Shown piece after piece: positions 4,237 to 46,300 of a stretch of DNA of 64,000 nt. Below the pieces are notes generated by a model, which worked only from the letters and a program-made list of their open reading frames with translations, did not search any database and had not been told where the DNA came from. The stretch is from Verrucomicrobiales bacterium (GTDB lineage Bacteria > Verrucomicrobiota > Verrucomicrobiia > Limisphaerales > UBA11358). The translations under genes and the position numbers were made by a program. Every line of letters begins with the position of its first letter. The stretch's first letter is position 1. The stretch is from NCBI GenBank assembly GCA_028712475.1, contig JAQTQB010000005.1:43408-107407 (forward strand), written 5' to 3'.

Positions 4237-4590
4237 CTAGACTCCGGCATCACGGCGGACTTTTTTCAGCTTGACGGCATCCTGATGCTTGTGCGCCTTG
4301 AATTTGTTGTGCTGCTTGCGGATTTGCTGCTCGATTTTTTTGGTCACGCGGTCAATCGCCGCGTAGAGGTCGCTTTCCACATCTTTGGCAAACAGGTCGG
4401 GGCCGCGCACGGCAAGGCGCATGGAGCATGAGAATTGTTTTTCCGGCACGCGCGTATGATCATGTTCAAGCGTGACGCGGGCATCAATGGCCCTTGGGTC
4501 GAAGTGATCCAGTTTTTTGATGCACTTCACGACATGCGCCTCGATGGCTTTGGTCAGGGTCAGGTTGTGAGTCGAGAGAATCAATTTCAT
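4237..4590 (-). CDS. hpf: Ribosome hibernation promoting factor (short HPF/RaiA family)
   Basis: 117-aa ORF MKLILSTHNLTLTKAIEAHVVKCIKKLDHFDPRAIDARVTLEHD... is typical of sigma-54 modulation protein/S30EA family N-termini. Confidence 0.87.
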   Translation of the reverse strand: MKLILSTHNLTLTKAIEAHVVKCIKKLDHFDPRAIDARVTLEHDHTRVPEKQFSCSMRLAVRGPDLFAKDVESDLYAAIDRVTKKIEQQIRKQHNKFKAHKHQDAVKLKKVRRDAGV

Positions 4591-4710
4591 GTCTTAAAGA
4601 TGTGACTGTCGCGCGAGTAAATCCAGTTTTCTTGATAAATTTTTTTGTGAAGCGAGAGTCATGCCAATTTTTCTTGTCTTTGGCCGGAACTGGTTTAACT
4701 TGCCGCGCAA

Positions 4711-6213
4711 ATGGTTCAGGGTTTGCAACTCTCCACGCGCTTGACGCAGTCAATGGTGCTTGCGCCGCAGCTCCAGCAATCGCTGGCGCTGCTGCAAGCT
4801 CCCACACTGGAACTCAAGGCCCTCGTCGAACAGGAACTGCAGCAGAATCCAGTCCTTGAAGAGGTCGAAGGTTCCGAAGTCGAGCTGCCGGACAAGCCTG
4901 TCGAAGAAATGGGCGAAAACAGCGACGCCACCGCCACCGCCGATCCCTCCGAACGCGCCGAGGATGCGCCAGTGGACGTGGAAAAGGCCGACGACGCGCC
5001 AGCCGATGATTTTCAGGAGGAATTTGACAAGCTTGTGCAGCTGGACCAGGAGTGGCGCGATAATTTTTCCCAGACGAACGCCCCCATCCGCCAGTCCACC
5101 GAGGATGAAGAACGGCGGCAGTTCATGTTCGACTCGCTCACCTCGGGAACTTCCTTCACGCAAATGTTGATGGATCAGGCGCGTGAATCTGATTTGACTG
5201 CGGACCAGCAAGCCATAGCCGAGCTCGTCATCGGCAACATTGACGATTACGGCTATCTCAAGGCGACGGTCGAGGAGATTTCCACGGCCAACAATCTTCC
5301 GGCCGATAAAATTGCTGAAGTCCTCAAAGTCATCAAAACCTTTGATCCGGCCGGCACCGGTGCGGGCGATCTGCGCGAATGCCTCATGCTCCAGCTCGAG
5401 CGCAAAGGCCAGCAGGACTCGCTCGAATACCGCATCATCCGCGATTTCATGGAGGCGCTGGGCAAACGCCGCATCCCCGAAATCGCACGCGGAACCGGGC
5501 GCGATGTGGACGAAGTCCAGGAATCCCTTGCTAAGATCGCACATCTGGAGCCGCGCCCCGGACGCGCCTTTCTGCCGGACACGGACCAGTTCGTTTCGCC
5601 CGAAGTGTTCGTGACCAAAGTCGGCGATGATTTCACCGTCGCCACCAACAACGACAACGTCCCGCATCTTCGCATCAGCAACGTTTACAAGGATCTCATG
5701 GCGCAGGGCGAGAACAACGCCGAGGTGAAGAATTACATCCGCGAGAAGATCCGCGCCGGAAAATTCCTCATCAAGAGCCTGCACCAGCGGCAGCAGACCA
5801 TCGGCAACATCGGCCGGGAGATAGTCAAACGTCAGCGCGAGTTCATGGAAAAAGGCGTCGCGCATCTGAAGCCGATGACGATGGCGCAGGTAGCCGAAGT
5901 GGTCGGCGTGCATGAAACCACCGTGAGCCGCGCCGTTTCCGGCAAATACATCGAGACGCCGCAGGGCATTTTCGAGATGAAATTTTTCTTCACCGCCGGC
6001 TTGCAGACCGCCTGCGGCACCGGTGTTTCCAACACGAGCGTGAAGGACATGATCGCCGAAATCTTTAAGAACGAGAATCCCAGCAAGCCGTTGTCCGACC
6101 AGGAAGTCGTGAAGATGGTCGGCGAAAAAGGCATCACCATCGCGCGCCGCACCGTCGCCAAATACCGCGACGAGTTGAACATCCTCCCGTCGAATCTGCG
6201 CAAGGTTTATTGA
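4711..6213 (+). CDS. rpoN: RNA polymerase sigma-54 factor
   Basis: 500 aa. It has the glutamine/leucine-rich region I (LAPQLQQSLALLQAPTLELKALVEQELQQNPVLEE), an acidic region II and the C-terminal RpoN box ARRTVAKYR. Confidence 0.96.
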   Translation: MVQGLQLSTRLTQSMVLAPQLQQSLALLQAPTLELKALVEQELQQNPVLEEVEGSEVELPDKPVEEMGENSDATATADPSERAEDAPVDVEKADDAPADDFQEEFDKLVQLDQEWRDNFSQTNAPIRQSTEDEERRQFMFDSLTSGTSFTQMLMDQARESDLTADQQAIAELVIGNIDDYGYLKATVEEISTANNLPADKIAEVLKVIKTFDPAGTGAGDLRECLMLQLERKGQQDSLEYRIIRDFMEALGKRRIPEIARGTGRDVDEVQESLAKIAHLEPRPGRAFLPDTDQFVSPEVFVTKVGDDFTVATNNDNVPHLRISNVYKDLMAQGENNAEVKNYIREKIRAGKFLIKSLHQRQQTIGNIGREIVKRQREFMEKGVAHLKPMTMAQVAEVVGVHETTVSRAVSGKYIETPQGIFEMKFFFTAGLQTACGTGVSNTSVKDMIAEIFKNENPSKPLSDQEVVKMVGEKGITIARRTVAKYRDELNILPSNLRKVY

Positions 6214-6340
6214 ACGGCTTTGCCCCTTTTCGTTCAGCGCCTTCACATGCACGGATTCAGGGCGAGAAATCTCCACAATGATGTTACTGAATCCTTCGTT
6301 GACGCAGGCAGATTTCTGGCGGCGCGGAACCGGCGGAGAT

Positions 6341-8206
6341 TTATTTCACGTCCTTTAACTGGAAACGCACGCTGGCGACGCCGGCCTTCAAGTCTATCTC
6401 AACCGGGACGGCGGTTTTCCTGAAAGTTTCCAGCATCGCGGCATTGTCCGAAAGCACGTCGGCGGTAAATCCGATGATGCCTTGTTGCGTTGCCACTTTT
6501 GCCAGATGCCGCAGCAAGAAGACGGCAATCCCGCGCTGCCTGAAATCTTCCTGCACCACGATGGCCACTTCCGCCCAGTTGGTTGCCGGGTCGCGATAAT
6601 AACGCCCGACGGCGATGAGCCGCTGGCGGCCTTCCCACACGATCTCGCCGGTGATGGCCATCGCGTCGTGATAATCCAGCGTGACCATTTGCTGAAGCGT
6701 TTCATGCCGCAGATGCCGGAGCGTTCCAAAGTAGCGCTGATAAATCGTCGCCGTCGTGTGCGAATAAAAAAGTTCCTTCAGCAAATTTTCATCCGTCGGC
6801 TGGATGGGCCGGAAATGAACCTTCAAGCCGCCCTGAAATTCATGGTCGGTCTCAAATTTTTTCGGATATGGCTGCAAACCTTGCGGCAGGGCGATCTGAT
6901 TCGGATGAACCAGCCGGGCTTCACGCGCCTGCTGCATCAGTTCATCGCGGAATTTCGGATGCGCAATGTGGATGAGCGCCAGCACCCGTTCGCGCACGGA
7001 TTTCCCGTGCAGACAGGCCACGCCGTATTCGGTCACGACATAGTGGACATCCGCGCGCGTGGTGACGACGCCCGCTCCGGTCTTGAGCCAGGGAACGATC
7101 CGCGAAACCGAGCCGTCGCACGTGGTGGAGGGCAGGGCGATGATGGGCTTGCCATTTTCCGACCGCGCCGCGCCACGCACAAAATCCACCTGCCCGCCGA
7201 AGCCGCTGTAAAATTTCCCGCCGATTGAATCCGCGCAGACCTGCCCCGTCAAATCCACTTCGATGGCCGAGCTGATGGCGATCATGTCGCGGTTGCGCGC
7301 GATCTGGAACGGGTCGTTGGTGAACTCGGTGGGGCAGAATTCAAACGCCGGATTGTCGTGAATGTAATCGTAGAATTTGCGGTTGCCGAAACAAAAGCTG
7401 GTGACGATTTTCCGGGGCAGAAGCGTCTTGCGCCTGCCGTTCAGCACGCCTGATTCGATCAATGGCACGACGGCTTCGGTTATCATTTCCGTGTGCATTC
7501 CGAGGTCGCGCTTGTTTTTCAACGCGGCCAGCACCGCGCTGGGAATCGCGCCGATGCCGGTCTGCAACGTCGCACCGTCCGGCACGAGCGATTCGATGAA
7601 CTCGGCGATCTTTTGCGCCTCAGGCGTGATGGGCTCCATCGGAAATTCCAGCACCGGCAGTTCGCTTTTCACCATTGCGTCGAGTTCGCTCACATGGACA
7701 AAGCTGTCGCCGAGCGTGCGCGGCATGTTGGGATTCACTTCGGCAATGACAAAATCCGCCGATTCGACGGCGGCCTTGACCACGTCCACAGAAACGCCAA
7801 AGCTGCAAAAACCGTGCGCGTCCGGCGGGCTGACCTGGACGAGCGCCACATCAAGGTGCATCCGTTTTTCGCGGAACATGCGTGGGATTTCCGACAAAAA
7901 CAGCGGCGTGTAATCGGCCACGCCTTCGTTGACCGCGTCACGGACGTTGGCGCCGATGAAAAAAGAATTCTGCCGGAAATGTTCCAGCAGATCGCGCCGC
8001 GCATACGGGGCCGGGCCGTGGGTAAGGATGTGCAGCACCTCGACGTCGTAAACTTCCGGCGCGCGCGCCGCGAGCGCCTCGACAAGCGCCTGCGGTGCCG
8101 CGCAACCCGAACCGATAAACACACGCATCCCGCTGCGCAGACAGTTCAGCGCTTCTGCTGCCGGTTTCCACGGAAAAAGGGATTCGTCCATAAACCAATA
8201 AACCAC
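6341..8206 (-). CDS. Acetyl-CoA hydrolase/transferase family protein fused to a C-terminal GNAT acetyltransferase domain
   Basis: 621 aa. The N-terminal 430 aa resemble 4-hydroxybutyrate/acetyl-CoA transferases (VFIGSGCAAPQ, GFGGQVDF). The C-terminal region QEDFRQRGIAVFLLRHLAKVATQQG matches the GNAT acetyl-CoA binding motif. Confidence 0.85.
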   Translation of the reverse strand: MVYWFMDESLFPWKPAAEALNCLRSGMRVFIGSGCAAPQALVEALAARAPEVYDVEVLHILTHGPAPYARRDLLEHFRQNSFFIGANVRDAVNEGVADYTPLFLSEIPRMFREKRMHLDVALVQVSPPDAHGFCSFGVSVDVVKAAVESADFVIAEVNPNMPRTLGDSFVHVSELDAMVKSELPVLEFPMEPITPEAQKIAEFIESLVPDGATLQTGIGAIPSAVLAALKNKRDLGMHTEMITEAVVPLIESGVLNGRRKTLLPRKIVTSFCFGNRKFYDYIHDNPAFEFCPTEFTNDPFQIARNRDMIAISSAIEVDLTGQVCADSIGGKFYSGFGGQVDFVRGAARSENGKPIIALPSTTCDGSVSRIVPWLKTGAGVVTTRADVHYVVTEYGVACLHGKSVRERVLALIHIAHPKFRDELMQQAREARLVHPNQIALPQGLQPYPKKFETDHEFQGGLKVHFRPIQPTDENLLKELFYSHTTATIYQRYFGTLRHLRHETLQQMVTLDYHDAMAITGEIVWEGRQRLIAVGRYYRDPATNWAEVAIVVQEDFRQRGIAVFLLRHLAKVATQQGIIGFTADVLSDNAAMLETFRKTAVPVEIDLKAGVASVRFQLKDVK

Positions 8207-8406
8207 CGTTGCAAATCAGCTGCAAAAAATCAGCAACAAAATTTTGCCGTGAAGATTCCCCGGTCGGCCTTGCATTGATTTGGTGGACAGGCCGGGGCGG
8301 GCAGAATCAATGATAAAGCAAGATTTGGCGAGGTTTTCGCAATGGCGTCCCTGAATTCTTCGTTGACGGTGCGAGGTTCGTAGGTAGAATTTCCCAATCG
8401 GTTTGA

Positions 8407-9510
<1,104 letters not shown>

Positions 9511-9528
9511 GCGAAAGCAAAATTCAAA

Positions 9529-9558
9529 ACGGCGGACTGGAAACAGTCCGCCGTTTTT
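9529..9558 (+). terminator. Rho-independent terminator of gap
   Basis: Stem acggcggactg, loop gaaa, stem cagtccgccgt (11-bp perfect stem), followed by ttttt. It lies 19 nt after the gap stop codon. Confidence 0.85.
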
Positions 9559-9561
9559 ATG

Positions 9562-9673
9562 CGCTGAAGGCGCTACGGAAATTAGCCCAGGGTTGCGAGG
9601 TGGCCCGTCCGGCTCGGCCCGATCTACCCTGGGTAACTCGCAAAAAACAATTCCACCCTGAAGGGGTGGCGGA
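9562..9673. repeat. Structured repeat element, left copy (inverted partner at 14609-14707)
   Basis: The sequence cgctgaaggcgctacggaaattagcccagggttgcgagg...ctaccctgggtaactcgcaaaaaacaattccaccctgaaggggtggcgga matches the reverse complement of 14609-14707, apart from one 17-nt indel and scattered mismatches. It contains the small hairpins gcgc-tgaag-gcgc and ccaccc-tgaa-ggggtgg. It abuts the helicase stop codon. Confidence 0.85.
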
Positions 9674-9677
9674 AATT

Positions 9678-12600
9678 TTAGCTCGCAGCCGCAAGGTTCG
9701 GACGCAGATTCCACACAAAGCCGATTGAATCCAGTTGTTGTTTGCGGGCCGGAGAAATTTTGCCACGAAAGTTTGCCGTGCGCTGGCCATTGACCCATTT
9801 TCCAAGCCGCTTTTGCTCGAGCGAAATATGTTCGCGGGATTTTTGCGGGACGTTGCAATGACCGTGAATTTTTCTGAACTCGACGAGTGCTGTAAACATT
9901 CTCTCCCAACTCAATGGTTCAACGAGCATCCAAATAAAACCGAGTTCATCAAGCCGCTTGGCGCGTTCTGCCATAATTGGGCGTTTATATCGTTTCGCAG
10001 CCCTTTGGTTTCTAACCCATGTTCCGAGTTCCCGGTATTTGCCAGAACGTTGAGGCACATTTGTGTGACCATGCTCCTGCTTGAACTCGACCAACTGCCG
10101 AAAATATTTCTCCCAATGATTGCTGTTTGGATCCCAATCAAAGCCCAACTCATCGAGCCGACGGGATCGCTCCGCATCAAGCAATCCTTTATTATTGATC
10201 ACTCTTTGTTCTGAAACCCAATCTGCAAGTCTCGGATTTTCTTTGCAACGCTGGGGCACAAGACAATTCCCATGTGCTTGCTTGTATTGTTGGAGCGCGA
10301 GGAACATTGCGTCCCACGCCTGAGCAGCCGTCAGTATATTGCCGCGTTGATTGAGCATTGGCAGTGCGCCTCGTCGCTCAACAATCCACTCGAAGCCAAT
10401 TCCATCCAAAGCAGCCATGCGTTCAGCTTTTAATTCTCCATGCTTTTTGAATCGCCGTTGCGTGGCAACCCAGTTGGCAAGTTTGCGATTGCCTGACCAT
10501 TGCCCCGGAACTCGGCAATGACCATGCTCACTTTTGAATGCTTGGAGAGCTTCGAGCATTTTCCCCCAGCCCTCGTCATCGGATGAAACTCCACCATGTT
10601 GCGGCGACCAGTCGAAACCAAGTTCATCGAGTCGTGCAATCTGTGTTGAGTCAAGTTTCCCCTTTCGACGATCCCGGCGTTGAATTGTCACCCACCAGCC
10701 AAGCTTTCTATTCGGGACAAATTTCTGCGGGACATTTGCATGATCATTTTCCAGACGGAATTGTTTGAGCACTGCAAACATTGCTTCCCACGCTTGTCCG
10801 GGCGGTCGCCCACCAGACCAGCTAACGCGCCATGAGAATCCGAGCGCATCAAGTGCGGTGATGCGTTTGGCAGATAGTTTCCCAGCCACTTTGCGCGCTC
10901 TTTGAACTGCAACCCAACTGGCCAGCTTTGGATTCTTTGACCATTTCGTCGGAACGCGGCAGTGCCCGTGTTCAGAGTGGAATTGCCGGAGCATTTCAAA
11001 CATTTGTTCCCACTGTTTGGAAAGCGGTTGCCATTCAAAACCGATGCCGTTGAGCCTTTGTTCGCGCGCCGCGTCAAACTCGCCATTCTTTTTGAATTGC
11101 CGCTGGGTCACCATCCACCTTCGCAATTGCGCATCCATGACACTGTCACGCGGTTTTCCGTTGTGCATTGGCCGTAGATACTGAACCAACTTCGCGAACA
11201 TGGTTTCCCATTCACCATCATTCGTGTTCCAAGCAAAACCGATTTCGTCCATCTGCCGCACTTGGTCAGCCGTCAGGTTGTTCCGTTGCTTTGCTGCGCG
11301 CTGGTGATAAACCCACCGTGCCAGTTCTGGATTTGCCTGCCAATCGGCGGGAACATTGCAATGCCCGTGCAGCTTGAAGAATTCGCCCACTTCAGAAAAC
11401 ATCTCACTCCATGTGCGCGACACAGGTTTGTGAAAATCCGGCGGCAATTTCGGCGCTGGCGTGCTCTTGTTCCGCTGCCAAATAAATCCAACCGCATCCA
11501 AAGTGCGAAACCGCGCATCGCTTAATTGTCCGGTTTTTTTAGCCCTTCGCTGTGTCAACACCCAGCGGTTTAGCTTGGCCGTCTCGTCATCAATGACTCT
11601 CACGATTGAAGCGCCATTTGCAGACGCGCATTTTTTGAATCGCTCGAACATTTCAAACCACTGCTTGTCAGTGTTTGGAGGCGCAGGTGTCCATGGGAAA
11701 TCAATTTCGTCTAACCGCTTCTTAATTTCGACTGGCAGCGTTCCGTTCTTGAGTCGTCTCCGTTGCTCGGTCATCCAGTTCGCCAAGCCCGGATAATTTT
11801 TGTCGAGATGTGAAACTGCCAGATGTCCATGCTCGGCTTTATGTGCGAGCAGTGCTGCAATCCTCTCATTCAAATCTTTGGCCGGCGGCAAGGCGTTGGG
11901 CGCTTTCCACTCAAAGCCGATTGAGTTTAGTCGGCCTTCGTAGTCCTTGTTCAGTTTGCCTTGGTTGCCCTTGTATCTTTGGGCGGACACCCATCTACCG
12001 AGCAGTGGGTTCTCCTTCCATTTGACCGGCACAAGCGTGTGGCCAAACCGTTCTTTGTAAGCACACAACTCCGCGAATCGTTCATCCCAAGTAGCCACGC
12101 CACCCGTCCACTCAAATCCGATTTTCTCCAGCATCGCAATCCGTTCACTAGACAGCTTGTTGCGACCGTAATCAACGCGCTGGGAGCTGACCCACCTTGC
12201 AAGCTTCTTGTTTTCCTTCCAATTCAAAGGGACGAAGCAATTGCCAAAACGATTTCGGTAATCCAAGAGCGCAAGATAATATGTCCGCCATGTGCTGGCG
12301 TGCGGCGACCATTTGAATCCGATGCGGTCGAGCAGTGCGATTTTTTCTTCCTCTAGCACCCCATCTTTTTGCAGCACGCGCTGATTTACGACCCAAGTTG
12401 CAAGTTTCTGATTTTCCGGCCAACGGGCGGGCATGTCGCGATTCCCATGCTTCTGCTGATAAGCCAAGAGTTGTCCATAACGCTCAAACCAACCTTCACC
12501 AATCGCATCAAGACACGCAGCGGTAATTGATTGTCGCAAACTATCCAGCGAAATCTCCGGGCCAATCATTTCCAAGCGTTCACGAATACGACTTTCATCA

Positions 12601-14573
12601 AAGCCGCCAGTCCGTCCGCGTTGGATTCGCATATCGTCTATGATTTGCGACAGCAAATCATCCTGCTCTTTCAACGCTTGAAGGACTTTCCAAATCTCGT
12701 CGAAGTTGCTCCGCAGAACGGCTTGCTCAACCGTTTCGCCTCGCGTCTTCTCCACATAAAGCGGCACGAGCACATACCCGAATTGCTTGCCGGGCGACCG
12801 ACGCATCGCGCGACCAGTCGCTTGAACAATGTCAACCATGCTCCGGCGCGGCGCGAGAAACGCGACCATGTCAACCGCAGGCACGTCAACTCCTTCAGTC
12901 AAACATCTGGCGTTGGAAAGAATCGCGTGCGGCGCTGACTTGAACCCACGCATGACGCGCTCACGATAGGCGGTAGGCATCGCGCCTTCGATATGCTCGC
13001 AATGGAATCCCTGCAAATGATTGGAGATGCCCGCCGCTCCATCAGAGGTAAAAGATTTTGCGGCATCCACTCTTGAGTGAAACGTGAAAACCTTCGAGAC
13101 GTTGTATTTCTCAATGGCAGATTTTAGGGCGATTTGATTGGCAACCTGACGCGCTTTGATTTCTTCGCCTTTAACCAAGACAATCCCGCGCCGGAGCAAT
13201 TCGTCATTCACCATGTCAGAAGTAACTTCTGAAATGATGACTTTGTAATCAGAAATAATTCCTCGCTTCGCCGCCTCGCTGAATGGCAGACGGTAAACAA
13301 TCGGGCCGTAAGTCTCCCGTTTGTCCATCGAGAAAACAAGTTGGGCACCGCCATCTTTGTTTTTGGCGAGTGGATTGTAATGTCGCGGGGTGGCGGTCAC
13401 GAACAGACGTTTGTGGATGGAAATGTTTTTATCTTCCAGCGCAAAACCAAAGTTGCGGCCTTCGCGTCCGGCGGTCTTGTGCGCTTCATCAAACACGGCA
13501 AAGTCAAACGCCTCGCCCGGCTTCATCGCCCCGCCAACGACGGACGCGGATTGGTAGGTGGAGAAAATCATTTTCACGCCGGCAAAAGGTGCGTCCAGAA
13601 AACTCCGCACGCTCGCGGTGTCGGTGGAGACTTGAAAGTCGAGGTCGGATTGTTGCGTGGTGAGCGCGTCTATGCCTTCCTTCACGGTCGGGTCGGAGCA
13701 GACGCAGAGATAGGCGAGACCCGGCAATCGGGTTTCGCGCAGCCATTCGTGAAGGGTCTGCCGCAGCAACGCAAGCGAAGGCAGCAGGACGAGAATCTTG
13801 CAACCAGCATTGGTGGGGCGAGGCTCCTGACGAGCCGGTTCGGTGGAATTTCCAGCACGGCTCGCGGGGACGCTTGCCCCACAGGCCTTCGCAATATGTT
13901 CAGCCACCCAAAGTGCAACGAGCGTTTTGCCCGTGCCGCAAGCCATGATCGCGGAAACGCGGTCGTGTGTTTGCAGCGCGGGGAGCAAGGCGTCCAGCGC
14001 TTCGGTCTGGTGCGGGAGCGGTGATTTTTTCGGCGCGATGAAAGCGGTGTCGGCCAGCCACGCTTCCATCGCGCGGAAGTCACCGGCTTCCAAACGATCC
14101 AAGTCCGAGCCACGGATGCAGAAGAAACCCTGGCGGTCATTGAGGACGGCGGGCAGTTCGTCGCAGTTGGTGAGCAGCACGCGGCTGTGGATGCGCGAAC
14201 TATCGGCCAGTCCGATGAAGGTGGAGAGTTCACGCCACGTCAGCGCCGGGCGTCCGGTGCGGAACTTGATTTGATAGGCGTTGAACTGGCCGAGCAAAGT
14301 TTGCAACACGCCGTCCACGCCCTGATCCTGCTGCGTGAGGCCGAGATTTTTGAGGATGTCGAGCGGGACGGAACCGTGCGGCCAGACTTGCGCGGCGTCG
14401 TATTTCCGTTGCGTGGCGAGATAGGCTTCGGCGAAAACTTCAAACGCAGCACCGCGAGATTGCTCGTCGGGCAGCGCGGCAATCTTCTGTTCCAATTCAG
14501 CAAAGCTGGTCAGGCCAGAGAACAAATGTCGCTGGACGAAGAAGGTCGCTTTTGGATGGCGAGCCGTTGCCAT
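9678..14573 (-). CDS. Large nuclease-helicase: N-terminal PD-(D/E)xK-like module, SF2 (type III restriction Res-like, DEAH) helicase, and 13 tandem helicase-associated (HA) domain repeats
   Basis: 1631 aa. The N-terminus has FEVFAEAYL...GVDGVL...YQIKFR, a restriction-endonuclease-like D...(Q/E)xK pattern. Helicase motif I is ACGTGKT, motif II is FDEAHK and motif VI is QATGRAMR. Thirteen repeats of about 67 aa follow, with the pattern W-x3-F-x2-L-x2-(F/Y)-x4-GH-x2-VP ... L-x-WV-x2-QR ... L-x2-(I/L)GF-x-W. Confidence 0.9.
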   Translation of the reverse strand: MATARHPKATFFVQRHLFSGLTSFAELEQKIAALPDEQSRGAAFEVFAEAYLATQRKYDAAQVWPHGSVPLDILKNLGLTQQDQGVDGVLQTLLGQFNAYQIKFRTGRPALTWRELSTFIGLADSSRIHSRVLLTNCDELPAVLNDRQGFFCIRGSDLDRLEAGDFRAMEAWLADTAFIAPKKSPLPHQTEALDALLPALQTHDRVSAIMACGTGKTLVALWVAEHIAKACGASVPASRAGNSTEPARQEPRPTNAGCKILVLLPSLALLRQTLHEWLRETRLPGLAYLCVCSDPTVKEGIDALTTQQSDLDFQVSTDTASVRSFLDAPFAGVKMIFSTYQSASVVGGAMKPGEAFDFAVFDEAHKTAGREGRNFGFALEDKNISIHKRLFVTATPRHYNPLAKNKDGGAQLVFSMDKRETYGPIVYRLPFSEAAKRGIISDYKVIISEVTSDMVNDELLRRGIVLVKGEEIKARQVANQIALKSAIEKYNVSKVFTFHSRVDAAKSFTSDGAAGISNHLQGFHCEHIEGAMPTAYRERVMRGFKSAPHAILSNARCLTEGVDVPAVDMVAFLAPRRSMVDIVQATGRAMRRSPGKQFGYVLVPLYVEKTRGETVEQAVLRSNFDEIWKVLQALKEQDDLLSQIIDDMRIQRGRTGGFDESRIRERLEMIGPEISLDSLRQSITAACLDAIGEGWFERYGQLLAYQQKHGNRDMPARWPENQKLATWVVNQRVLQKDGVLEEEKIALLDRIGFKWSPHASTWRTYYLALLDYRNRFGNCFVPLNWKENKKLARWVSSQRVDYGRNKLSSERIAMLEKIGFEWTGGVATWDERFAELCAYKERFGHTLVPVKWKENPLLGRWVSAQRYKGNQGKLNKDYEGRLNSIGFEWKAPNALPPAKDLNERIAALLAHKAEHGHLAVSHLDKNYPGLANWMTEQRRRLKNGTLPVEIKKRLDEIDFPWTPAPPNTDKQWFEMFERFKKCASANGASIVRVIDDETAKLNRWVLTQRRAKKTGQLSDARFRTLDAVGFIWQRNKSTPAPKLPPDFHKPVSRTWSEMFSEVGEFFKLHGHCNVPADWQANPELARWVYHQRAAKQRNNLTADQVRQMDEIGFAWNTNDGEWETMFAKLVQYLRPMHNGKPRDSVMDAQLRRWMVTQRQFKKNGEFDAAREQRLNGIGFEWQPLSKQWEQMFEMLRQFHSEHGHCRVPTKWSKNPKLASWVAVQRARKVAGKLSAKRITALDALGFSWRVSWSGGRPPGQAWEAMFAVLKQFRLENDHANVPQKFVPNRKLGWWVTIQRRDRRKGKLDSTQIARLDELGFDWSPQHGGVSSDDEGWGKMLEALQAFKSEHGHCRVPGQWSGNRKLANWVATQRRFKKHGELKAERMAALDGIGFEWIVERRGALPMLNQRGNILTAAQAWDAMFLALQQYKQAHGNCLVPQRCKENPRLADWVSEQRVINNKGLLDAERSRRLDELGFDWDPNSNHWEKYFRQLVEFKQEHGHTNVPQRSGKYRELGTWVRNQRAAKRYKRPIMAERAKRLDELGFIWMLVEPLSWERMFTALVEFRKIHGHCNVPQKSREHISLEQKRLGKWVNGQRTANFRGKISPARKQQLDSIGFVWNLRPNLAAAS
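13813..13882. repeat. Imperfect 70-nt palindromic element in frame within the helicase gene, between motif I and motif Ia
   Basis: Arm 13813-13837 is gtggggcgaggctcctgacgagccg. The reverse complement of arm 13858-13882 is gtggggcaagcgtccccgcgagccg, a 19/25 match. The loop contains ggaattt, as does the bioA element loop. It encodes CGASVPASRAGNSTEPARQEPRPTN. Confidence 0.7.
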
Positions 14574-14608
14574 GCGGAAAGAGTATCAATTCATTCTGCG
14601 AAGAAAAG

Positions 14609-14707
14609 CCTCCGCCACCCCTTCAGGGTGGAAATAATTTTTGGGGCGTTTTCCTAGGGTAGCTCGTTCCTCGCAACCCTAGGCTAATTTCCGTTACGCC
14701 TTCAGCG
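14609..14707. repeat. Structured repeat element, right copy (inverted partner of 9562-9673)
   Basis: See 9562-9673. It begins 36 nt upstream of the helicase start codon. Confidence 0.85.
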
Positions 14708-14716
14708 TATTTGAAT

Positions 14717-14800
14717 TCACTTCGTCGTCTGCGGCGTTTCCTGAATCACTTTTTTCTGCTCCAGCTTTTCCAGCTTGGGCGCGATGAACAAGCCACAGTC
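14717..14800 (-). pseudogene. Relic duplicate of the msrA 3-prime end (last ~25 codons plus stop)
   Basis: The minus-strand frame reads ...CGLFIAPKLEKLEQKKVIQETPQTTK*. The C-terminus of the intact MsrA is ...GYCRVVIAPKLEKLEKAKVIQTEPQTGKN*. DNA 14729-14787 aligns with 15349-15407 at roughly 78% identity by hand alignment. Confidence 0.65.
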
Positions 14801-14810
14801 GCGCATCATT

Positions 14811-15065
14811 TCAGCGATACACTTCGCGCCTGTGCCCGACGGTGATGACGAGGATTTGCAAAACGCGGTCATGGATTTCGTAAATCACCCGGTAATCGCC
14901 GATGCGAATCCGCCACGCGTCGCGGCCTTTGAGTTTTTTCACGTCCTGCGGGCGCGGGTTGGTTTCCAATCCGGCCAGCCGCGCCAAAACCCGCCTGGCG
15001 ATTTCATCCGGCAGACGATCCAGTTCCTTCTGAACCGACTTGGGCAGGATGACTTAAAATTTCAT
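14811..15065 (-). pseudogene. RelE/ParE-family type II toxin with an in-frame TAA at codon 4
   Basis: The minus strand reads ATG AAA TTT TAA GTC ATC CTG..., giving MKF*VILPKSVQKELDRLPDEIARRVLARLAGLETNPRPQDVKKLKGRDAWRIRIGDYRVIYEIHDRVLQILVITVGHRREVYR*. The ATG overlaps the antitoxin stop in a classic ATGA junction. No ATG, GTG or TTG occurs in frame within the first ~35 codons after the stop; the first is GTG at 14951-14949, too far in to give a full-length toxin. Confidence 0.8.
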
Positions 15066-15292
15066 TTTGCCTTGCGGCTTCGGCTGGCGCGGTAGCTCGT
15101 CAGGGTGGCGCACTGGCCGGCGGCAACTTCGGAATGCGCCCGGTCGTGCAGGACGTCGTAAGCCTGTATGTCGGCCAATTCTTCTTCGGCTGCGCGAAGA
15201 TGCTCGTAAGTCTGCAAATCAAGCACGACGCCGGTGCGTTTGCCCTTGGCATCTGTGAGAAACTGTTCACTTTTGACGGCCAGCGTTTTCAT
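15062..15292 (-). CDS. Type II antitoxin (Phd/YefM- or RelB-like)
   Basis: 76 aa, MKTLAVKSEQFLTDAKGKRTGVVLDLQTYEHLRAAEEELADIQAYD.... It sits immediately upstream of the RelE/ParE-like frame with a 4-nt overlap. Confidence 0.75.
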   Translation of the reverse strand: MKTLAVKSEQFLTDAKGKRTGVVLDLQTYEHLRAAEEELADIQAYDVLHDRAHSEVAAGQCATLTSYRASRSRKAK

Positions 15293-15333: not shown

Positions 15334-16005
15334 CTAATTCTTCCCGGTCTGCGGCTCGGTTTGGATCACTTTTGCCTTCTCCAGTTTTTCCAGCTTGGGC
15401 GCGATGACGACCCGGCAATAGCCCTGGCTGGAATTGTTGTCGTAGTATTCCTGGTGATAATCCTCGGCCTTGTAAAATTTCTTGAGCGGCACGATTTCCG
15501 TGACGATGGGATTATGGAAATCCGCCTGCGCCGCCAGCTTGGATTTTTCCGCGAGCAGTTTCTGTTTCTCATCACGATACAAAATGATGGAGCGATACGA
15601 CGTGCCCACATCCGCGCCCTGACGGTTTAACGTGGTCGGGTCGTGCGCCTGCCAGAAAACTTCCAGCAGCTTGCTGTAGGAAATTTTTGCGGGATCAAAT
15701 TCAATCTCCGTGACCTCGGCGTGGCCGGTCGTCTCGGTGCAGACCTGCTGGTAGGTCGGATTTTCCGTGGTGCCGCCGGCAAAGCCGCTGGTCACGGAAA
15801 CCACGCCGGGCAGCCGTTCAAACACGGCCTCCATGCACCAGAAGCAGCCGCCGCCGAGATCGGCGATTTCAGTTTTGTTCGTCGCGGACATTTTGGATTC
15901 AGTTGTGTTTATAACTGACTTGGTTGATTGAGCCGGTTGTTCTGCACGCGAACAAGATAAATTCAACGCGCCTACAGCCAGCAGGAGAGGGAGAATGTTT
16001 TTCAT
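15334..16005 (-). CDS. msrA: Peptide-methionine (S)-S-oxide reductase MsrA with an N-terminal lipoprotein-type signal
   Basis: 223 aa with the signal/lipobox LLLAVGALNLSC and the catalytic GGGCFWCMEAVF. Confidence 0.93.
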   Translation of the reverse strand: MKNILPLLLAVGALNLSCSRAEQPAQSTKSVINTTESKMSATNKTEIADLGGGCFWCMEAVFERLPGVVSVTSGFAGGTTENPTYQQVCTETTGHAEVTEIEFDPAKISYSKLLEVFWQAHDPTTLNRQGADVGTSYRSIILYRDEKQKLLAEKSKLAAQADFHNPIVTEIVPLKKFYKAEDYHQEYYDNNSSQGYCRVVIAPKLEKLEKAKVIQTEPQTGKN

Positions 16006-41126: not shown

Positions 41127-43052
41127 CTATTGCGGTGGGAACGCGCGCCAAGTGATGCTGACGTTCTGATAGCCCATGGCAATTCCAAAAATGTCCGTCG
41201 CCGTGAGGTTCACGCTCAAATGATTCCCAACCACAGAGACTTCGGCAGGATCCACGCTCACATAAGAAATCGTGGCCGGATAGCCGCCGCCAATGGGCGA
41301 TGGAATGGCATTCACGTCACCAATCGAACCGGAGTCGTCAAAAATCGCCGAGTTGATGATGACCTGAAAATCGCTGGGGATGAACCCAAAGTCCAGGCTG
41401 TCCAGATTCGTAGAGATGGACATGCCAAAGCCACCAACAGAGAAGTAATCATCCGGATAATTTATGGTCTGTTCGATGGCAGGCCGGGCGGCGGCGATGC
41501 TGATGTTCGCATCCACCGGGTCAAGCGCGCTATTATTGGTCTGGCCGATGGTGCCTTGATAGACGACAAGGAATTTGGTGCCGGAGGGTGCCGGGCCGGG
41601 ATAAGTCATGTTCGCGCTGCTGCCGTCCGGCAGAATGCCGCCCGATACCATGTCGCTCAAGTTCGTGTGCTGGACGAGGGACCGGTTTCCGCTGGCATCC
41701 TCTTCAAACAAGGAGAACGCACCGTTGTAGAAATCCTGGCCGGAAGTGTTTTTGTTCGTGAACGTGTAGATGTCTGTATTGGTGTCCCAATTAAAGCCCA
41801 CGTCCAATGTCCCGCGAAAGAAATAATCCAGAATGCCCGCGCTATATTCCACCGCTTTGGGGATGAGAATGTCGTGATAAGCCTTAAGAACATTATCGTC
41901 TTGAATCGTGCTGGAAACTTCAAGGACGCGCCCGCTTTTTCTGGTATAAGCACCCAGATATGTGAGCGCGCTGTGATTTGCAAAAGAAATCCCATCGCCG
42001 GTTTTATCGAGATAAATGCGATTGACCAGTTCTTCGTCTTTCAATAGAACCGTCCTGACTCCATTCCCCAAGGTTGTTCTTTTTTTGGGGTAGTCCGTGC
42101 TGGTTTGCAACGAGGGATAGGGAAAGTAATGCTTGGAGTAATCCTTGTCGCTTAGTTTGAAGTATTCACGGTAGGTCGTAGTTCTCCCGATGAAATTTCC
42201 GTTGCTGAATTCGGCGAGGCCTAGTTTTTTGCCGGAAACATTATTTTTATCATCGTTGAGAGCCTGGGTGTTCCCTGTGTAAAAATCCCTGTCCCAAAAA
42301 TCCTGCATTTTTGTGAAACCAGCCGCGCGCCAGTTCAACAAGTTGGCTGAATAATTCAATTGCTGCCAATGGTCTGCGCCATATTGCTCCATGGCACTAT
42401 AATAAGGAGGCCAAAAACTCAAATGCTGTTCGTTACGGACGTGTTGAGGTTGACTCGTATCTTGCAGCAGATGAACAACGTCTCCAAGACCTCGAAACAT
42501 TTGAGCTAAAAAACTGTTGCGAATGATTGGGTTGGCATTGGTCAAACCTTGCCATTCGTTTTGTCGCACGTTTTGCCATGTCCATTCATTCATCGTATTG
42601 AAATTTGGAAAAGGCAGCCGAGAATTTATACCGGGTTCATTGAACCATGCGGCCCAATTAAAAGAATTCACACCATATATTTGGTTTCCATCAAATTCAA
42701 CCGGCGGAATATCTGAAAGGCCTTGGCCATTCAAAGGATTGTAAAAATGATTATATGATCTGGCTCCGCCAGCGTCCTCATAGAGGTCATCTTCCCGAAT
42801 TGCTCCAAGAGACATCCAGCCAAATTCTCCGCCGATAGGCCGATAATCTCCACCGAATGGAAACAGGAGTTGGCCGCTAGGATCGGTTACAGTAATTGTA
42901 TTCAAGAATTCCTTGTATCCGTCCGACTGTGCAGAAACGATGGAGGCCGCACTCATGGTAATATGTTGATGCACGACAACTTCGTGTGCAACGGAGACGA
43001 ATGGGAGGCTCAACGCCAGCAACATCAAAGCAATTGCATTATTTTTCATCAT
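41127..43052 (-). CDS. Secreted protein with an N-terminal zinc-dependent phospholipase C/P1-nuclease-like domain and an uncharacterised beta-rich C-terminal half
   Basis: The start is chosen at MMKNNAIALMLLALSLPFVSVAHE, a signal peptide. The motifs HQHIT, SYNHFYNPLNGQGL and LGDVVHLLQDTSQPQHVRN match the metal-ligand blocks of the Zn-PLC fold. The gene has lower G+C than its surroundings. Confidence 0.62.
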   Translation of the reverse strand: MMKNNAIALMLLALSLPFVSVAHEVVVHQHITMSAASIVSAQSDGYKEFLNTITVTDPSGQLLFPFGGDYRPIGGEFGWMSLGAIREDDLYEDAGGARSYNHFYNPLNGQGLSDIPPVEFDGNQIYGVNSFNWAAWFNEPGINSRLPFPNFNTMNEWTWQNVRQNEWQGLTNANPIIRNSFLAQMFRGLGDVVHLLQDTSQPQHVRNEQHLSFWPPYYSAMEQYGADHWQQLNYSANLLNWRAAGFTKMQDFWDRDFYTGNTQALNDDKNNVSGKKLGLAEFSNGNFIGRTTTYREYFKLSDKDYSKHYFPYPSLQTSTDYPKKRTTLGNGVRTVLLKDEELVNRIYLDKTGDGISFANHSALTYLGAYTRKSGRVLEVSSTIQDDNVLKAYHDILIPKAVEYSAGILDYFFRGTLDVGFNWDTNTDIYTFTNKNTSGQDFYNGAFSLFEEDASGNRSLVQHTNLSDMVSGGILPDGSSANMTYPGPAPSGTKFLVVYQGTIGQTNNSALDPVDANISIAAARPAIEQTINYPDDYFSVGGFGMSISTNLDSLDFGFIPSDFQVIINSAIFDDSGSIGDVNAIPSPIGGGYPATISYVSVDPAEVSVVGNHLSVNLTATDIFGIAMGYQNVSITWRAFPPQ

Positions 43053-43383
43053 TGCTCCTCTTGATAGAAAACAAAATTGCCGCAACAATCGCCGAAATAA
43101 TTGTTCCAAGAACCGTATTCATGAGGATACAAATCAGATCGTCTGTAAAAATGCCGTTGAATGGTGCTGTGGGCATTTTGTTCCCAATTATCAAGTATAC
43201 AGGAAGGCCGATTACACCTCGGATTAAAGCAAAAAACATTGCCACGCCACCCTCGCCGCTTCCATGTGCAAAAAGATGGAAACAAATAATCACAAAAAAA
43301 GTAAAAGCTGCAAACAGCAAGCCACCACGAATTGCAACTTTTGCTACTGCACAAAGTTTTGTTTTTGTTTCTGGATTTTTCAT
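43039..43383 (-). CDS. Small 3-TM membrane protein, hypothetical
   Basis: The start is chosen at MKNPETKTKL. It has three hydrophobic helices. G+C is about 40% by hand count of lines 43081-43200. It lies 7 nt downstream of the giant gene stop and overlaps the next gene start by 14 nt. Confidence 0.5.
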   Translation of the reverse strand: MKNPETKTKLCAVAKVAIRGGLLFAAFTFFVIICFHLFAHGSGEGGVAMFFALIRGVIGLPVYLIIGNKMPTAPFNGIFTDDLICILMNTVLGTIISAIVAAILFSIKRSNDEK

Positions 43384-43390
43384 AGTTTTT

Positions 43391-46300
43391 TCAAAAGGAA
43401 TCAATTTTCCACGCGCCGTTCTCCTTAACAAATTCTATCGGAAATGTGATGGCTTGTCCGTCAATCGTTTGCTGGAAATAGTATTCAGCCGTGTCACCAT
43501 TAACAAAAACTGGCTTCAGTGTTCCGATCTGACCAATGGCGGAAATGGTGGTGACGGTGCCAAGATCAAGAAATGACTGCCGGTATTTGTCTGCCGAGAG
43601 GCTGGAGAAATCCGATGCCGCGCCCGGAATGTCGGCAGCGGCAATCCGGGCGGTCATGTGGTTCCAAACCGCCAGCACGGGGTCCGCATCTCCACTCGGA
43701 GCTGTGCATAGAATCACGCGGTTGTTGCCGGTGTCGGCAATATAGAACAGGTCGTTGGTGAAATTATTGACCGCAGCCACCGCATACGGCTGGCTTAAAT
43801 TGGTGGTCACTGCGTAGTCAATGCTGGACGCGGTGATGCTGAAAAACCCGCTTGCCGGAAATTTGAATTTCTGGATGCGGTTGTTGCCGGTGTCCGCCAC
43901 ATAAACGCCGCGCGTGCCAACGCAGAGGTTGACCGGCCCACTGAATTGTCCCAAGGCAGTGCCATTGGTTCCCGCCACGCCTTGAACCGAACTTCCCTGT
44001 GCCAGCACGATCCGGTTGTTCCCTGAATCCACGACATACAACGTGCCGACCGAATCATAGGTGAGTCCCTTGGGCGCATTGAACTGGCCGACGGCACTAC
44101 CCGCTGCGCCGAAGGAGGCGATGAATGCGCCGGTCGTCACTGCGAATTGCTGAATCCGATGGTTGCCGGAATCCGACACCGAAATGCTCTGACCGTCGGG
44201 AGTGACCGCGACATCGAACGGGGCATTGAACGCGCCGTTAGTTGTCCCGGAAATTCCGTTTGTAAATCCGATGACACCTCGAACACCAAAATTCGTGTCC
44301 GCCGCGAATGAACTGCTTGTCGGCTTCAATTTCCAAACCTGATTGCTGGCGCTCACGGCCACATAAACATTGCCCGCTGCGTCCACGTCAAAGCCCGACG
44401 GATTCGTGCCAACGCTGCTCAAGGAGCGGATGGTGCTGCCGTTGGTGCTGAATTCCGTAAGCGTCGCAGCGCTGCGCGACAAAACGTAAAGATTGGTGCC
44501 GATCAATTTTAAATCCACCGGGTCGGTGATGCTGGCGAACGTCGCCACCGTCGGCGGCATCTGCACATTGATGCGGATTGGCTGATTAATCTCGTCCAAG
44601 GCCACGGCGTTCCATCCGCCCACGCTGGAAAAGCGACCCGTGGTGGTCTGAATCGTAACGACCGGGAAGTATTCGCCGTTGGTCGCGTAAGCGTGGGTGA
44701 TGGAATTCAGATTGTTGGTGACAAAATCGGCAAGGCTGTCGCCGTTGAAATCATAAGCCGCCTGCTGAAAGGTTCCGGGCATATTGGTCTGAACCTGGAA
44801 CGTGACGGTCAACGGAGCAAAGCCGGCAATCGGCGTGGCCTGGAGTTGAACCGGATTGTTCAGGCTGCCATTAGCATTGGTGGTCGTAATGATGTTGATT
44901 GAAGCAACATTGGTGCTTCCGGTCAAATCTTCGAGCAAGGCTGTGATGATGTTGGTGCCCGCATCCAACGGCACGTTCAAGGCGTTAAAGTTTGTGCCAT
45001 TCACAAAGGCCAGAACGCCATTGACCGTGACTTGTTTCAGAGAACCAGCGGTGAAATTCCCGCTGACGTTCACCCTTGACGCGTTGAACGAGACATTGTT
45101 GACAGGATTGGTGATCGAAATGGTTGGCGGAACAGAATCCAGAACCAGAGTGGTCTCCTCCCATGTCTGATGCGCGTTTGACGGCAATCCCCGGAGTCCG
45201 ACCCAGACATCATGCGCTCCCTGATTTGTGCCGAGGCTTACCGTGAGATTGGATGACGTGTAGGCTGTCCACGTTGCCCCCGCAAAATTCGTGCTGTCCA
45301 CCAGCAACGCGAAGTAAGACGGCACGCCGCCCAAAACCGTGATGATGCCGCTGACGATGTTGGTGCTGACGTATTGATTCGCAAACGAGAAAGCAAAGCT
45401 GATTTTGTTCGGGTCGGCGCCGTTCAGATATTCCTGCAAATTATTGGTGCCATCACTGTCATAGTCACCGAGCGGATCCAAACCACCATGGCCGAAATAG
45501 TTTGTTTCCCAAGTCCCCAGCGCGCCGTCGGGATTCGCCAGATAATCCGGCAGGCCCGACCAATAGGTGCCGGCCGGATAACCGATGATGTTCGGATTGA
45601 AATTCGTTCCAGTGTAATATCCACCGCTGCCAATCTGCACGGAAACCATGTCATCCAGAAAATTCGCAAGGGGAACATTGGTTGGAAAATAGACCCAGAA
45701 TGATGTCAGCCCGGACGAATCCGTAGTCAAGGTCAGGCTCGTCTCCGCAATGCCATTCGTGGCCGTGGCAAGCTGGACTGCGCCACTGACAATTGCGACA
45801 GCTTCCTCGATGTTGGTCAGCGGTGCTGAACCGGCTCCGGTGAGTTGCACCGTCACCGGCAGAAACATCCCGGCGGCGTTCGTCTGATATTGACCGCCGG
45901 TTATCTGAAATTTCGGAATGACAATGGTTAGTTGCAAATTGGTTCCCACCCCCAGCCCGCCTTCAGGACTGGCGGCATAAAAGTTGATCGTGCAATTGGT
46001 GTTGACCGTATCAAAGGCATAGGCAAACACCTCGACCTCCCCGTTGGTGCCGGTATCAAGTCTTAAATCGGAGAATTCATTGTATTGAATAACCTCCGCA
46101 TCCGAATTGGTATCCAACCATAAATCACCTTGGGCAACCCGGACATAGACCGGTGCATTGGTCAACGGATTGCCCGCCAAATCGGTGACCCGAAATTGAA
46201 ATGATTGCGCCAGGAAAGGATTAGCGCAGGCCCCAGCCTGGATGATTTGAGGTTTGGGTTCAACGGGATTGTAGTAAACAGAGTAGGGCCGGGTATAGTC

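Follow-up and report, generated by a model that had tools for sequence, protein, structure and literature searches.

We analysed a 64,000-nucleotide stretch of a Verrucomicrobiales genome (GTDB order Limisphaerales; contig JAQTQB010000005.1, hereafter the window), in which the minus-strand gene at 9678–14573 encodes an Mrr-type nuclease followed by a Type ISP-like superfamily 2 (SF2) translocase and 13 helicase-associated (HA) units. This gene is the only passenger of a unit bounded by hairpin-forming inverted repeats. On balance, we are inclined, though without great assurance, to regard its product as a mobile, methylase-less, ATP-driven translocating restriction-like endonuclease from the Type ISP lineage, with an HA array that reads DNA and a role in defence.

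The protein joins a Type ISP-like head to an HA array

According to the open reading frame (ORF) list of the 64-kb window, the gene starts with an ATG and encodes 1631 amino acids; a Logan contig also carries an identical protein. A Pfam scan identified ResIII at residues 183–397 (E = 9.6e-12), Helicase_C at residues 483–592 (E = 3.3e-13) and the HA domain (PF03457) in 13 separate stretches (E = 1.8e-219), together with a marginal match to Mrr_cat_2 at residues 61–140 (E = 9.7e-5; 22.7 bits against a cut-off of 22). A first-pass annotation, made by reading the sequence without database searches, had proposed this ORF and its three-part architecture, including an N-terminal PD-(D/E)xK nuclease and C-terminal HA repeats. 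The ORF list and the Pfam scan confirm both the outline and the identity of the repeats. What had been missed is the homology of the protein to Type ISP restriction enzymes.

The N-terminal part of the protein, which we refer to as the head (residues 37–651), matches LlaBIII (4XQK) with E = 1.5e-60 and LlaGI (5FFJ) with E = 2.5e-53; the next best characterised match is RadD, at E = 1e-8. The match to LlaBIII consists of three collinear blocks, comprising the nuclease and both RecA lobes. Plasmid genes annotated as ‘type ISP restriction/modification enzyme’ cover 92–95% of the head at ~30% identity. Within the head, the Mrr-family PD-(D/E)xK nuclease domain occupies residues ~37–140 (14154–14465, minus strand), and the SF2 helicase-like ATPase/translocase occupies residues ~181–651 (12621–14033, minus strand), the latter being supported by its homology to LlaBIII and LlaGI and by a match to the N-terminus of the PADLOC model REase_MTase_IIG.

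The nuclease is also supported apart from Pfam, as residues 37–229 align with the nuclease of LlaBIII. In LlaGI, the nuclease motif residues have been defined as E38, D74, D78, Q92 and K94 and tested by mutagenesis (Smith et al., PMC2790908); the D74A, D78A and K94A substitutions abolish cleavage and leave translocation intact (PMC2790908). These five residues correspond, in an HMMER alignment, to E45, D83, D87, Q101 and K103 of the window protein, all invariant in 121 of 121 sequences (the window protein and 120 homologues), so that the proposed nuclease retains intact catalytic residues. The translocase carries Walker A (GTGKT, 213–217), DEAH (362–365), TATP (393–396) and motif VI (QATGRAMR, 584–591). 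Here too, G213 and K216 of Walker A, DEAH 362–365, TAT 393–395 and Q584, G587, R588 and R591 of motif VI are invariant in 121 of 121.

Type ISP enzymes are plasmid-borne anti-phage systems that translocate along duplex DNA and cut after collision. The window protein shares with LlaBIII and LlaGI a single-polypeptide organisation, an N-terminal Mrr-family nuclease with the motif E...D-x3-D...Q-x-K, and an SF2 helicase-like ATPase of the same family, in the same order, with motifs I, II, III and VI intact. It differs from them in having neither the gamma-class N6-adenine methyltransferase nor the target-recognition domain (TRD), no family of either kind being matched in the 1631 residues by Pfam and NCBIfam scans; 13 HA modules occupy the C-terminal 940 residues instead. 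The LlaBIII alignment stops at its residue 658 (query residue 651), leaving the coupler domain region beyond the alignment, and residues 652–693 form a short linker, the first HA unit starting 42 residues past the ISP-homologous region. Since it has no methylase, the window protein cannot be a restriction–modification (RM) enzyme in the strict sense. From these alignments, it appears to correspond to the nuclease–motor half of a Type ISP enzyme and to lack two of the defining features of that class, the methylase and the TRD.

Among the models of PADLOC-DB v2, no named system matches the protein over its full length. REase_MTase_IIG (1646 positions) is matched at 1.8e-87 over only its first ~450 positions, and the remaining partial matches are to REase_MTase N-termini, to the PbeA motor and to a motor fragment of mREase_IV that spans just ~75 residues. 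The earlier statement that no named defence system fits therefore holds, the best matches being limited to the N-terminal ~450 residues of REase–MTase fusion models. Type IV modification-dependent enzymes, which include nuclease–motor restriction enzymes of the SauUSI type as well as Mrr itself, offer a second comparison. Like them, the window protein combines an Mrr-family nuclease, an NTP-driven motor and a separate module that would read DNA, without a cognate methylase; unlike them, it contains no modified-base reader (SRA, EVE/PUA or DUF3427).

Copy number, age and modularity of the HA array

The array of 13 HA units spans residues 694–1621 (9711–12494, minus strand), as delimited by Pfam, unit alignment and an AlphaFold2 model. 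It amounts to ~57% of the protein and covers its C-terminal 940 residues entirely. The units, of 62–67 residues each, share an invariant L, W, Q-R and F-x-W, and their pairwise identity averages 37% (range 26–58%).

According to the first-pass annotation, HA domains come in one or a few copies, and 13 is an exceptional number; neither statement survives a wider search. The head retrieved more than 2,300 proteins at E <= 1e-20, of which the best 120 are 62–87% identical and come mostly from Verrucomicrobia/Pedosphaera metagenome-assembled genomes (MAGs). These 120 carry 0–8 HA units (mode 7, typically 5–8), as counted by a profile made from the units of the window protein, and part of the low counts are truncations at contig ends. 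When 1.84 billion cluster representatives were searched with a profile of one unit, 34,173 HA proteins were returned; among the best 150 of them, 29 have at least 13 units, and the maximum is 26. The three-part architecture itself also occurs with 15 (P0129), 14 (P0186) and 12 (P0126) units, and motor-only HA proteins reach 17–20. Multi-copy arrays are thus the norm in the family, and thirteen units lie in its upper tail without being unique.

The array of the window protein belongs to a sub-lineage with a conserved complement of 12–14 units. An orthologue at a second locus (L029; 1599 residues, motor 64% identical) also has 13 units, which pair with those of the window from 1:1 through 13:13 at 56–90% identity per unit. 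P0126 has 12 units in the same order, unit 9 being missing, and the arrays at L024 and L036 are colinear with that of the window as far as the loci extend. At the 20 positions most variable from unit to unit, agreement is 58% in orthologous units versus 13% in non-orthologous ones. Between the window and L029, the synonymous substitution rate (dS) is saturated (~2–3), and the ratio of nonsynonymous to synonymous rates (dN/dS) is lowest in the motor (0.08), followed by the array (0.107) and the nuclease (0.145). Together with the positional orthology, these ratios indicate that every HA unit has been kept by selection. The proposal that the repeats are diverged rather than recently amplified is borne out by the colinear orthologues, the saturated dS and a dN/dS of ~0.11, and this comparative evidence shows the array to be old and constrained.

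By contrast, P0001, whose motor is 87% identical to that of the window protein, carries only four HA units, none of them orthologous, and the protein at L008 likewise carries a non-orthologous array. Non-orthologous arrays on close motors, and the same array on the more diverged motor of L029, show that motor and array have been exchanged independently, in the manner of the specificity modules of restriction systems.

In an AlphaFold2 model of seven units, every unit is a three-helix module predicted with confidence (mean predicted local distance difference test score, pLDDT, of 88); some linkers are of low confidence, and the predicted template-modelling score (pTM) is 0.45. The rigid solenoid that had been envisaged for the array is not supported by this model, which is better described by tethered modules with short-linker blocks. 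A fold search of the PDB with the seven-unit model gave no match at E < 1, and a search with a single-unit model (pLDDT 90) returned nothing informative, not even the HA domain structure 2KTA.

The gene lies in a discrete unit bounded by inverted repeats

Two copies of a structured, terminal-inverted-repeat-like element flank the gene and point inward: a 3' copy at 9558–9690 (plus strand; nhmmer E = 3.7e-22) and a 5' copy at 14596–14711 (minus strand; nhmmer E = 3.6e-26), both delimited with an inverted-repeat finder and by alignment. They are ~120 nt long and 82% identical, and are the only two copies within the 64 kb. The inner end of the 3' repeat overlaps the stop codon of the gene, while the 5' repeat runs on as a conserved leader to the ATG. 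Each copy consists of three hairpins. Hairpin C, with a T-run, lies on the gene's sense strand at 9669–9653 and looks like the gene's terminator.

The hairpins are unlikely to be fortuitous. Pairing amounts to 88.9%, versus 30–52% in slid controls, and the observed score was reached by none of 500 shuffles. Two stem positions covary cleanly across 34 copies from other genomes, one between A-U (17 copies) and G-C (14), the other between U-A (19) and C-G (13). Chance inverted repeats were accordingly ruled out by the shuffles, in which none are expected, by the occurrence of the element at 42 loci elsewhere and by the covariation. A scan of the whole window against Rfam found no family at the gathering threshold. 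The Acido-Lenti-1 RNA motif, which comes from Acidobacteria and Lentisphaerae, neighbouring phyla, scored 19 bits against a gathering threshold of 37 at 14678–14709 (plus strand; E = 0.023), over hairpin A and its left flank, and was set aside as a probable chance match. A scan of the 5' repeat and leader for sigma-70 promoters gave nothing convincing.

The insertion can be delimited by comparison with a related contig, L050, whose GAPDH is 98.9% identical to that of the window. Its alignment to the window ends at 9558 and resumes at 14710, that is, at the outer repeat ends, and this break identifies 9559–14710 as a discrete 5.15-kb insertion between GAPDH and msrA. The comparison shows that this unit was inserted there with the nuclease–helicase gene as its sole cargo. 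In six related contigs, a scan for MsrA found Tsp, msrA and a convergent GAPDH adjacent to one another, with 106–458 bp between msrA and GAPDH and no helicase between them. The first-pass annotation had already recognised an inserted islet, a point that stands, and had overlooked its flanking inverted repeats. The window contains no tRNA gene, which rules out a tRNA as the integration target, and no integrase was found among the neighbours scanned.

The intergenic site between msrA and GAPDH is a recurrent insertion point in this lineage. In L050 (reverse complement, 857–1254) it holds a small lipoprotein-like ORF. In L055 it holds a 6.3-kb insert (4465–10653), which was considered as a further case of the unit and rejected, since it encodes an unrelated 2062-residue secreted protein and lacks the repeat.

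Related repeats bracket defence genes in other Limisphaerales

We surveyed 8-kb pieces of MAG contigs, which can be chimeric, for further copies of the repeat. Its 21-nt core was found in 42 stretches of GTDB genomes, nearly all of them MAGs of Limisphaerales/Verrucomicrobia subdivision 3. In a profile search, the copies face inward in 14 of 14 two-copy loci, at distances of 0.09–6 kb. The helicase is repeat-linked cargo in the window and at L029, L024/L026, L036/L003 and L008, with shortened forms at L020 and L032, and in L008, L020, L024, L032 and L036 a repeat copy precedes the helicase ATG by ~100 nt. We rejected the idea that the repeat is a helicase-specific 5' leader, as copies are also found beside unrelated genes and at 3' ends.

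Other repeat pairs bracket a Type III RM pair (L035), Type IIG-like methylase–specificity fusions (L021, L007), EcoRI-type and C-5 methylases (L040, L027), PD-Lambda-1 (L042, E = 1.9e-91), a ZorD-like SNF2 helicase with a PD-T4-1-like protein (L041), an LmuA-like STAND NTPase (L013), a DruA fragment (L010), DUF2779 (L033) and several unknown proteins. Two pairs are nearly empty, one with its copies back-to-back (L017) and one with its copies 434 bp apart (L030). No transposase or recombinase family was detected among the ~35 cargo proteins scanned, and no consistent direct repeat that could be a target-site duplication was found at the outer junctions of the 14 pairs. The outer flanks are a T-run or GAATTCA.

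Conservation is much higher in the repeats than in the gene. Between the window and L029, identity falls from 85% in the repeats to 67% over the gene, and to 46% if third codon positions alone are compared; the 5' repeat of L024 is 96% identical to that of the window and its motor 62%, and the repeat of L008 is 93% identical to that of the window. On its outer side, the repeat is accompanied by two to three tandem CACGAATT iterons, by a GGCCGAGCTTCGGCC hairpin or by a terminator-like hairpin with a conserved GGAAAC loop and a covarying stem, and hairpin C occurs in at least three sequence variants across the family.

Several individual loci bear on the history of the cargo. L020 (535–2338) has a 545-residue form of the helicase inside its repeat pair, and L032 (1212–2373) has a 234-residue N-terminal fragment in a 1.16-kb repeat-bounded unit; these deletion derivatives of the helicase point to decay of some copies. 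L033 (2217–2360) matches the window (14574–14711) from the 5' repeat and its leader into the coding sequence, the shared stretch taking in the start codon and the first three codons (ATGGCAACG, M-A-T); the gene that begins there is the unrelated DUF2779 gene. This sharing suggests that one cargo replaced another through recombination at a point just inside the coding sequence. At L005/L038 (CAILDU010000048.1), repeats of this family also flank a distant nuclease–helicase, 31–33% identical to the head of the window protein, which indicates that a second helicase lineage uses these cassettes.

Mobile insertion cassettes, cargo bounded by miniature inverted-repeat transposable elements (MITEs), and repetitive extragenic palindromic (REP) elements with their REPIN (REP doublets forming hairpins) derivatives are the natural classes for comparison. 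As in these classes, inverted terminal repeats surround a passenger gene, no transposase is carried, near-empty miniatures occur, hairpin-forming copies are dispersed, and the unit is present or absent at an otherwise conserved site. The units differ from these classes in that no target-site duplication was seen at the junctions and no cognate transposase among the cargo scanned, in that the repeats are ~120 nt long and modular, with three covarying hairpins, and in that the cargo is consistently of defence type. They differ from REP/REPIN elements accompanied by a REP-associated transposase in that the flanked gene encodes a PD-(D/E)xK nuclease–SF2 helicase, not an IS200/IS605-like Y1 (HUH) transposase, and from integron cassettes in that the repeats form inverted pairs around solitary units and not a directly oriented attC array.

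These comparisons bring up an alternative that concerns the flanks only. The repeats could be intergenic hairpins similar to REP sequences or bacterial interspersed mosaic elements (BIMEs), acting as outward terminators or insulators and gathering at acquired genes, the helicase having arrived otherwise, for example by homologous recombination. We regard this as possible though rather unlikely. The mosaic make-up of the repeats, with extra outer modules (CACGAATT iterons or a terminator hairpin), the outward-facing terminator-like hairpin at each end, the lack of both a target-site duplication and a transposase in our scans, the diverged msrA 3'-end duplicate that adjoins the unit and hints at recombination (see below), and the presence of unrelated genes at the same intergenic site in L050 and L055 would all fit such an origin. 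Hairpins that merely gather at acquired genes would less readily account for the uniform inward orientation of the 14 two-copy loci, for insertion junctions that coincide with the outer repeat ends within a base or two, for the near-empty pairs L017 and L030 (434 bp) and the truncated helicase of L032, or for the restriction of the repeat within 64 kb to the two copies that flank the gene.

Homologues in other genomic settings

Databases already contain many members of the protein family, with generic names only. The Rhodococcus qingshengii plasmid protein WP_064689746.1 (‘DEAD/DEAH box helicase’; 1201 residues), encoded beside a NACHT gene, has the same architecture with eight HA units. It and the verrucomicrobial MAG proteins named ‘Helicase associated domain protein’ share with the window protein the Mrr nuclease, the ISP-like motor and the HA array; they differ in that most have 5–8 units, whereas the window protein belongs to the conserved 12–14-unit sub-lineage. 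A further branch is found in 115 Pseudomonas plasmid records (P. aeruginosa megaplasmids), whose HA-domain helicase has a motor 35–36% identical from residue 188 onward and lacks the nuclease. The HA-helicase family is thus also common on clinical megaplasmids.

A third group of relatives comprises Streptomyces TtrA-like genes, likewise named ‘Helicase associated domain protein’, whose motors are 27–33% identical to that of the window protein, with the match starting at residue ~187, and which lie ~0.2–2 kb from the ends of linear plasmids. They resemble the window protein in having an SF2 motor of the same family and a C-terminal tandem HA array and in adjoining terminal inverted repeats or structured DNA. 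They differ from it in lacking the Mrr nuclease, in their position at the telomeres of linear plasmids and chromosomes and in being implicated in the conjugal transfer of ends; the window gene sits in an interstitial chromosomal insertion with ordinary chromosomal genes around it over the 64 kb.

The TtrA-like relatives raise the alternative of a DNA-transfer or mobilisation helicase, in which the HA array would recognise the hairpin-rich repeats and the nuclease and motor would act on the unit by nicking it and by unwinding or moving it, and on other cassettes in trans. The shared motor and the proximity of TtrA-like genes to linear-plasmid ends speak for such a role, as does the published suggestion that the tandem HA domains of TtrA and of telomeric TniQ target selectors recognise telomere DNA. 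What defines REP-associated transposases is a lone gene set between inverted copies of a dispersed hairpin repeat, and the window unit follows that pattern. Among the cargoes surveyed, moreover, none but the helicase recurs; it is associated with ~16 of 46 repeat copies, and a conventional transposase was found in no cassette scanned. We nevertheless think this reading quite improbable. The repeat of L008 is 93% identical to that of the window and its array is non-orthologous, so that array and repeat are not matched; the repeat is missing beside homologues whose motors are 66–71% identical; a search seeded with the helicase's own flank would be expected to recover the helicase repeatedly; TtrA-like proteins lack the nuclease; and we know of no PD-(D/E)xK-plus-SF2 fusion that acts as a transposase.

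A housekeeping or stress-related enzyme of DNA repair or recombination, acting on stalled forks or unusual structures and only incidentally associated with mobile and defence genes, has the lowest probability of the readings we considered. The motor is distantly similar to RadD, Hef, XPB and UvrB, many homologues stand singly among metabolic genes, one lies beside a RecD2-like helicase, and purifying selection on the gene is strong, as would be expected of such an enzyme. Its closest characterised relatives are by far the restriction enzymes (E = 1e-60, versus 1e-8 for RadD), its genomic position is not syntenic between related genomes, and it is absent from the same site in near-identical relatives. 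HA counts ranging from 0 to 15, and arrays shuffled between close motors, are typical of conflict genes and not of core repair.

Neighbouring features of the locus

The genes around the unit are housekeeping genes (rpoN, HPF, acetyl-CoA hydrolase, GAPDH, msrA, Tsp and Lnt), and other helicase loci do not share these neighbours. At the boundary between GAPDH and the inserted unit lies a bidirectional terminator-like hairpin (9526–9557), which is native sequence inside a 94.5%-identical block common to L050.

The last ~70 nt of msrA are doubled (14717–14790 and 15334–15407). The outer copy, directly beyond the 5' repeat (14717–14790, minus strand), is left over from an msrA 3' end, and its ORF ends ...KLEKLEQKKVIQETPQTTK (...QETPQTTK). 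As a direct repeat, the two copies are 79% identical between 14720–14787 and 15340–15407, and the msrA 3' end of L050 aligns with the remnant. A toxin–antitoxin (TA) pair (14811–15292, minus strand) sits between the two copies, comprising a ParE-family toxin (14811–15065) and a putative 76-residue antitoxin (15062–15292). The antitoxin ORF has no Pfam match and overlaps the toxin ATG by 4 nt, as in TA operons. The toxin frame has an in-frame TAA at codon 4 (MKF*VILPK...) and matches ParE_toxin at E = 1.7e-13 with the stop masked. The TA module appears to have entered the msrA 3' end and to have brought or left a replacement end. The 85% identity of msrA to that of L050, set against 98.9% for GAPDH, hints at recombination in the region.

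A second segment of the window stands out by its low GC content (down to 47% versus ~57%). This segment, 41127–49726 on the minus strand, encodes a 2111-residue RCC1/NHL-repeat protein and a 660-residue ORF without a Pfam match. The low-GC region at 41–48 kb was considered as a second defence islet and rejected, as it encodes this giant RCC1/NHL-repeat protein. It was possibly acquired horizontally and is unrelated to the nuclease–helicase.

Proposed mechanism and its assessment

Given the architecture of the protein and its setting, we hypothesize that the HA array binds DNA and picks the substrate, with each unit adding its own conserved contacts. Positional orthology, purifying selection, the shuffling of modules and published suggestions of HA–DNA binding underlie this proposal. 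DNA binding would license the motor, which, judging by its homology and intact motifs, may then translocate along duplex DNA at the expense of ATP, and the Mrr nuclease would cut when the motor stalls or collides, by analogy with LlaGI and LlaBIII. With no cognate methylase, self and non-self would have to be told apart by what the array recognises; candidates for its target are a modified base, a structure or an end of DNA, and a foreign sequence. Since the same pairs of repeats bracket RM and other anti-phage systems in Limisphaerales, defence against phages or other invading DNA is the most likely role, by association.

DNA binding by the array is favoured by the title of the report on the HA domain structure 2KTA (PMC3637686), which says that the structure ‘indicates domain binding to DNA’, and by the tandem HA domains of TtrA and of telomeric TniQ target selectors, for which the authors suggest telomere DNA recognition. 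A number of observations weigh against the proposal. DNA binding by HA domains has as its basis one paper title and the suggestions of other authors, and the empty fold searches do not tie the HA fold to a known DNA-binding fold. A methylase-less translocating nuclease would need a safeguard for its own chromosome, and none was identified. Our literature search found no paper or functional study on this architecture. With regard to mobility, ~400 bp of unrelated sequence occupy the site in L050, which is therefore not a clean empty site, and neither a transposase in the cargo scanned nor a target-site duplication was found, so that the evidence for mobility is confined to the unit being present in some genomes and missing from the same site in others. 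Because the search for repeats started from the flank of the window gene itself, the cargo frequencies are biased.

The genomic context is also less telling than had been supposed. The annotation's picture of an inserted islet beside a TA module is correct as to the insertion and the adjacency; as evidence for defence the module is weak, because the in-frame TAA makes the ParE toxin a pseudogene. The more distant homologues (L044–L049) lack the repeat, occupy a different place in every genome and stand singly among metabolic genes, with defence-type neighbours (TIR_2/Mrr, GmrSD, RecD2-like) in only 2–3 of 5 contexts. Homologues are thus not uniformly embedded in housekeeping surroundings, as some lie beside such neighbours, and the distant ones are largely solitary. 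The defence interpretation first put forward is strengthened, by association, through the repeats that bracket recognised defence systems in related genomes, while the context of distant homologues remains mixed.

Implications

The HA domain is widespread, with one small nuclear magnetic resonance structure and no established function. Its placement in the window protein, where an HA array stands in for the target-recognition half of an understood restriction motor, provides a testable hypothesis for what HA domains do. Unit-by-unit conservation combined with shuffling of arrays is how a modular specificity device would be expected to look and, if this is what the array is, it would be relevant to programmable DNA binding. 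With a methylase-less derivative of the Type ISP lineage, one must also ask how a nuclease that translocates along DNA keeps from harming its own host. Should the gene prove to be merely another uncharacterised helicase–nuclease on an ordinary MITE-like element, the value of the finding would lie mainly in better annotation.

A bolder combination of claims, which we consider unlikely, is that HA arrays form a modular DNA-reading system swapped between motors and that, in addition, the repeats constitute an undescribed transposase-less defence-cassette system of Limisphaerales, with the helicase–nuclease as candidate mobiliser. If so, the exchange of HA arrays would be a protein-only, methylase-independent counterpart of specificity-subunit swapping that retargets a translocating nuclease, and the hairpin-rich repeats would carry defence genes one at a time into intergenic sites, with no transposase encoded by the element. 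Looking between repeat pairs offers a way to find new defence genes in Verrucomicrobiota, and the repeat-bounded defence cassettes, a less expected result than the protein itself, may reveal a new route of defence-gene mobility.

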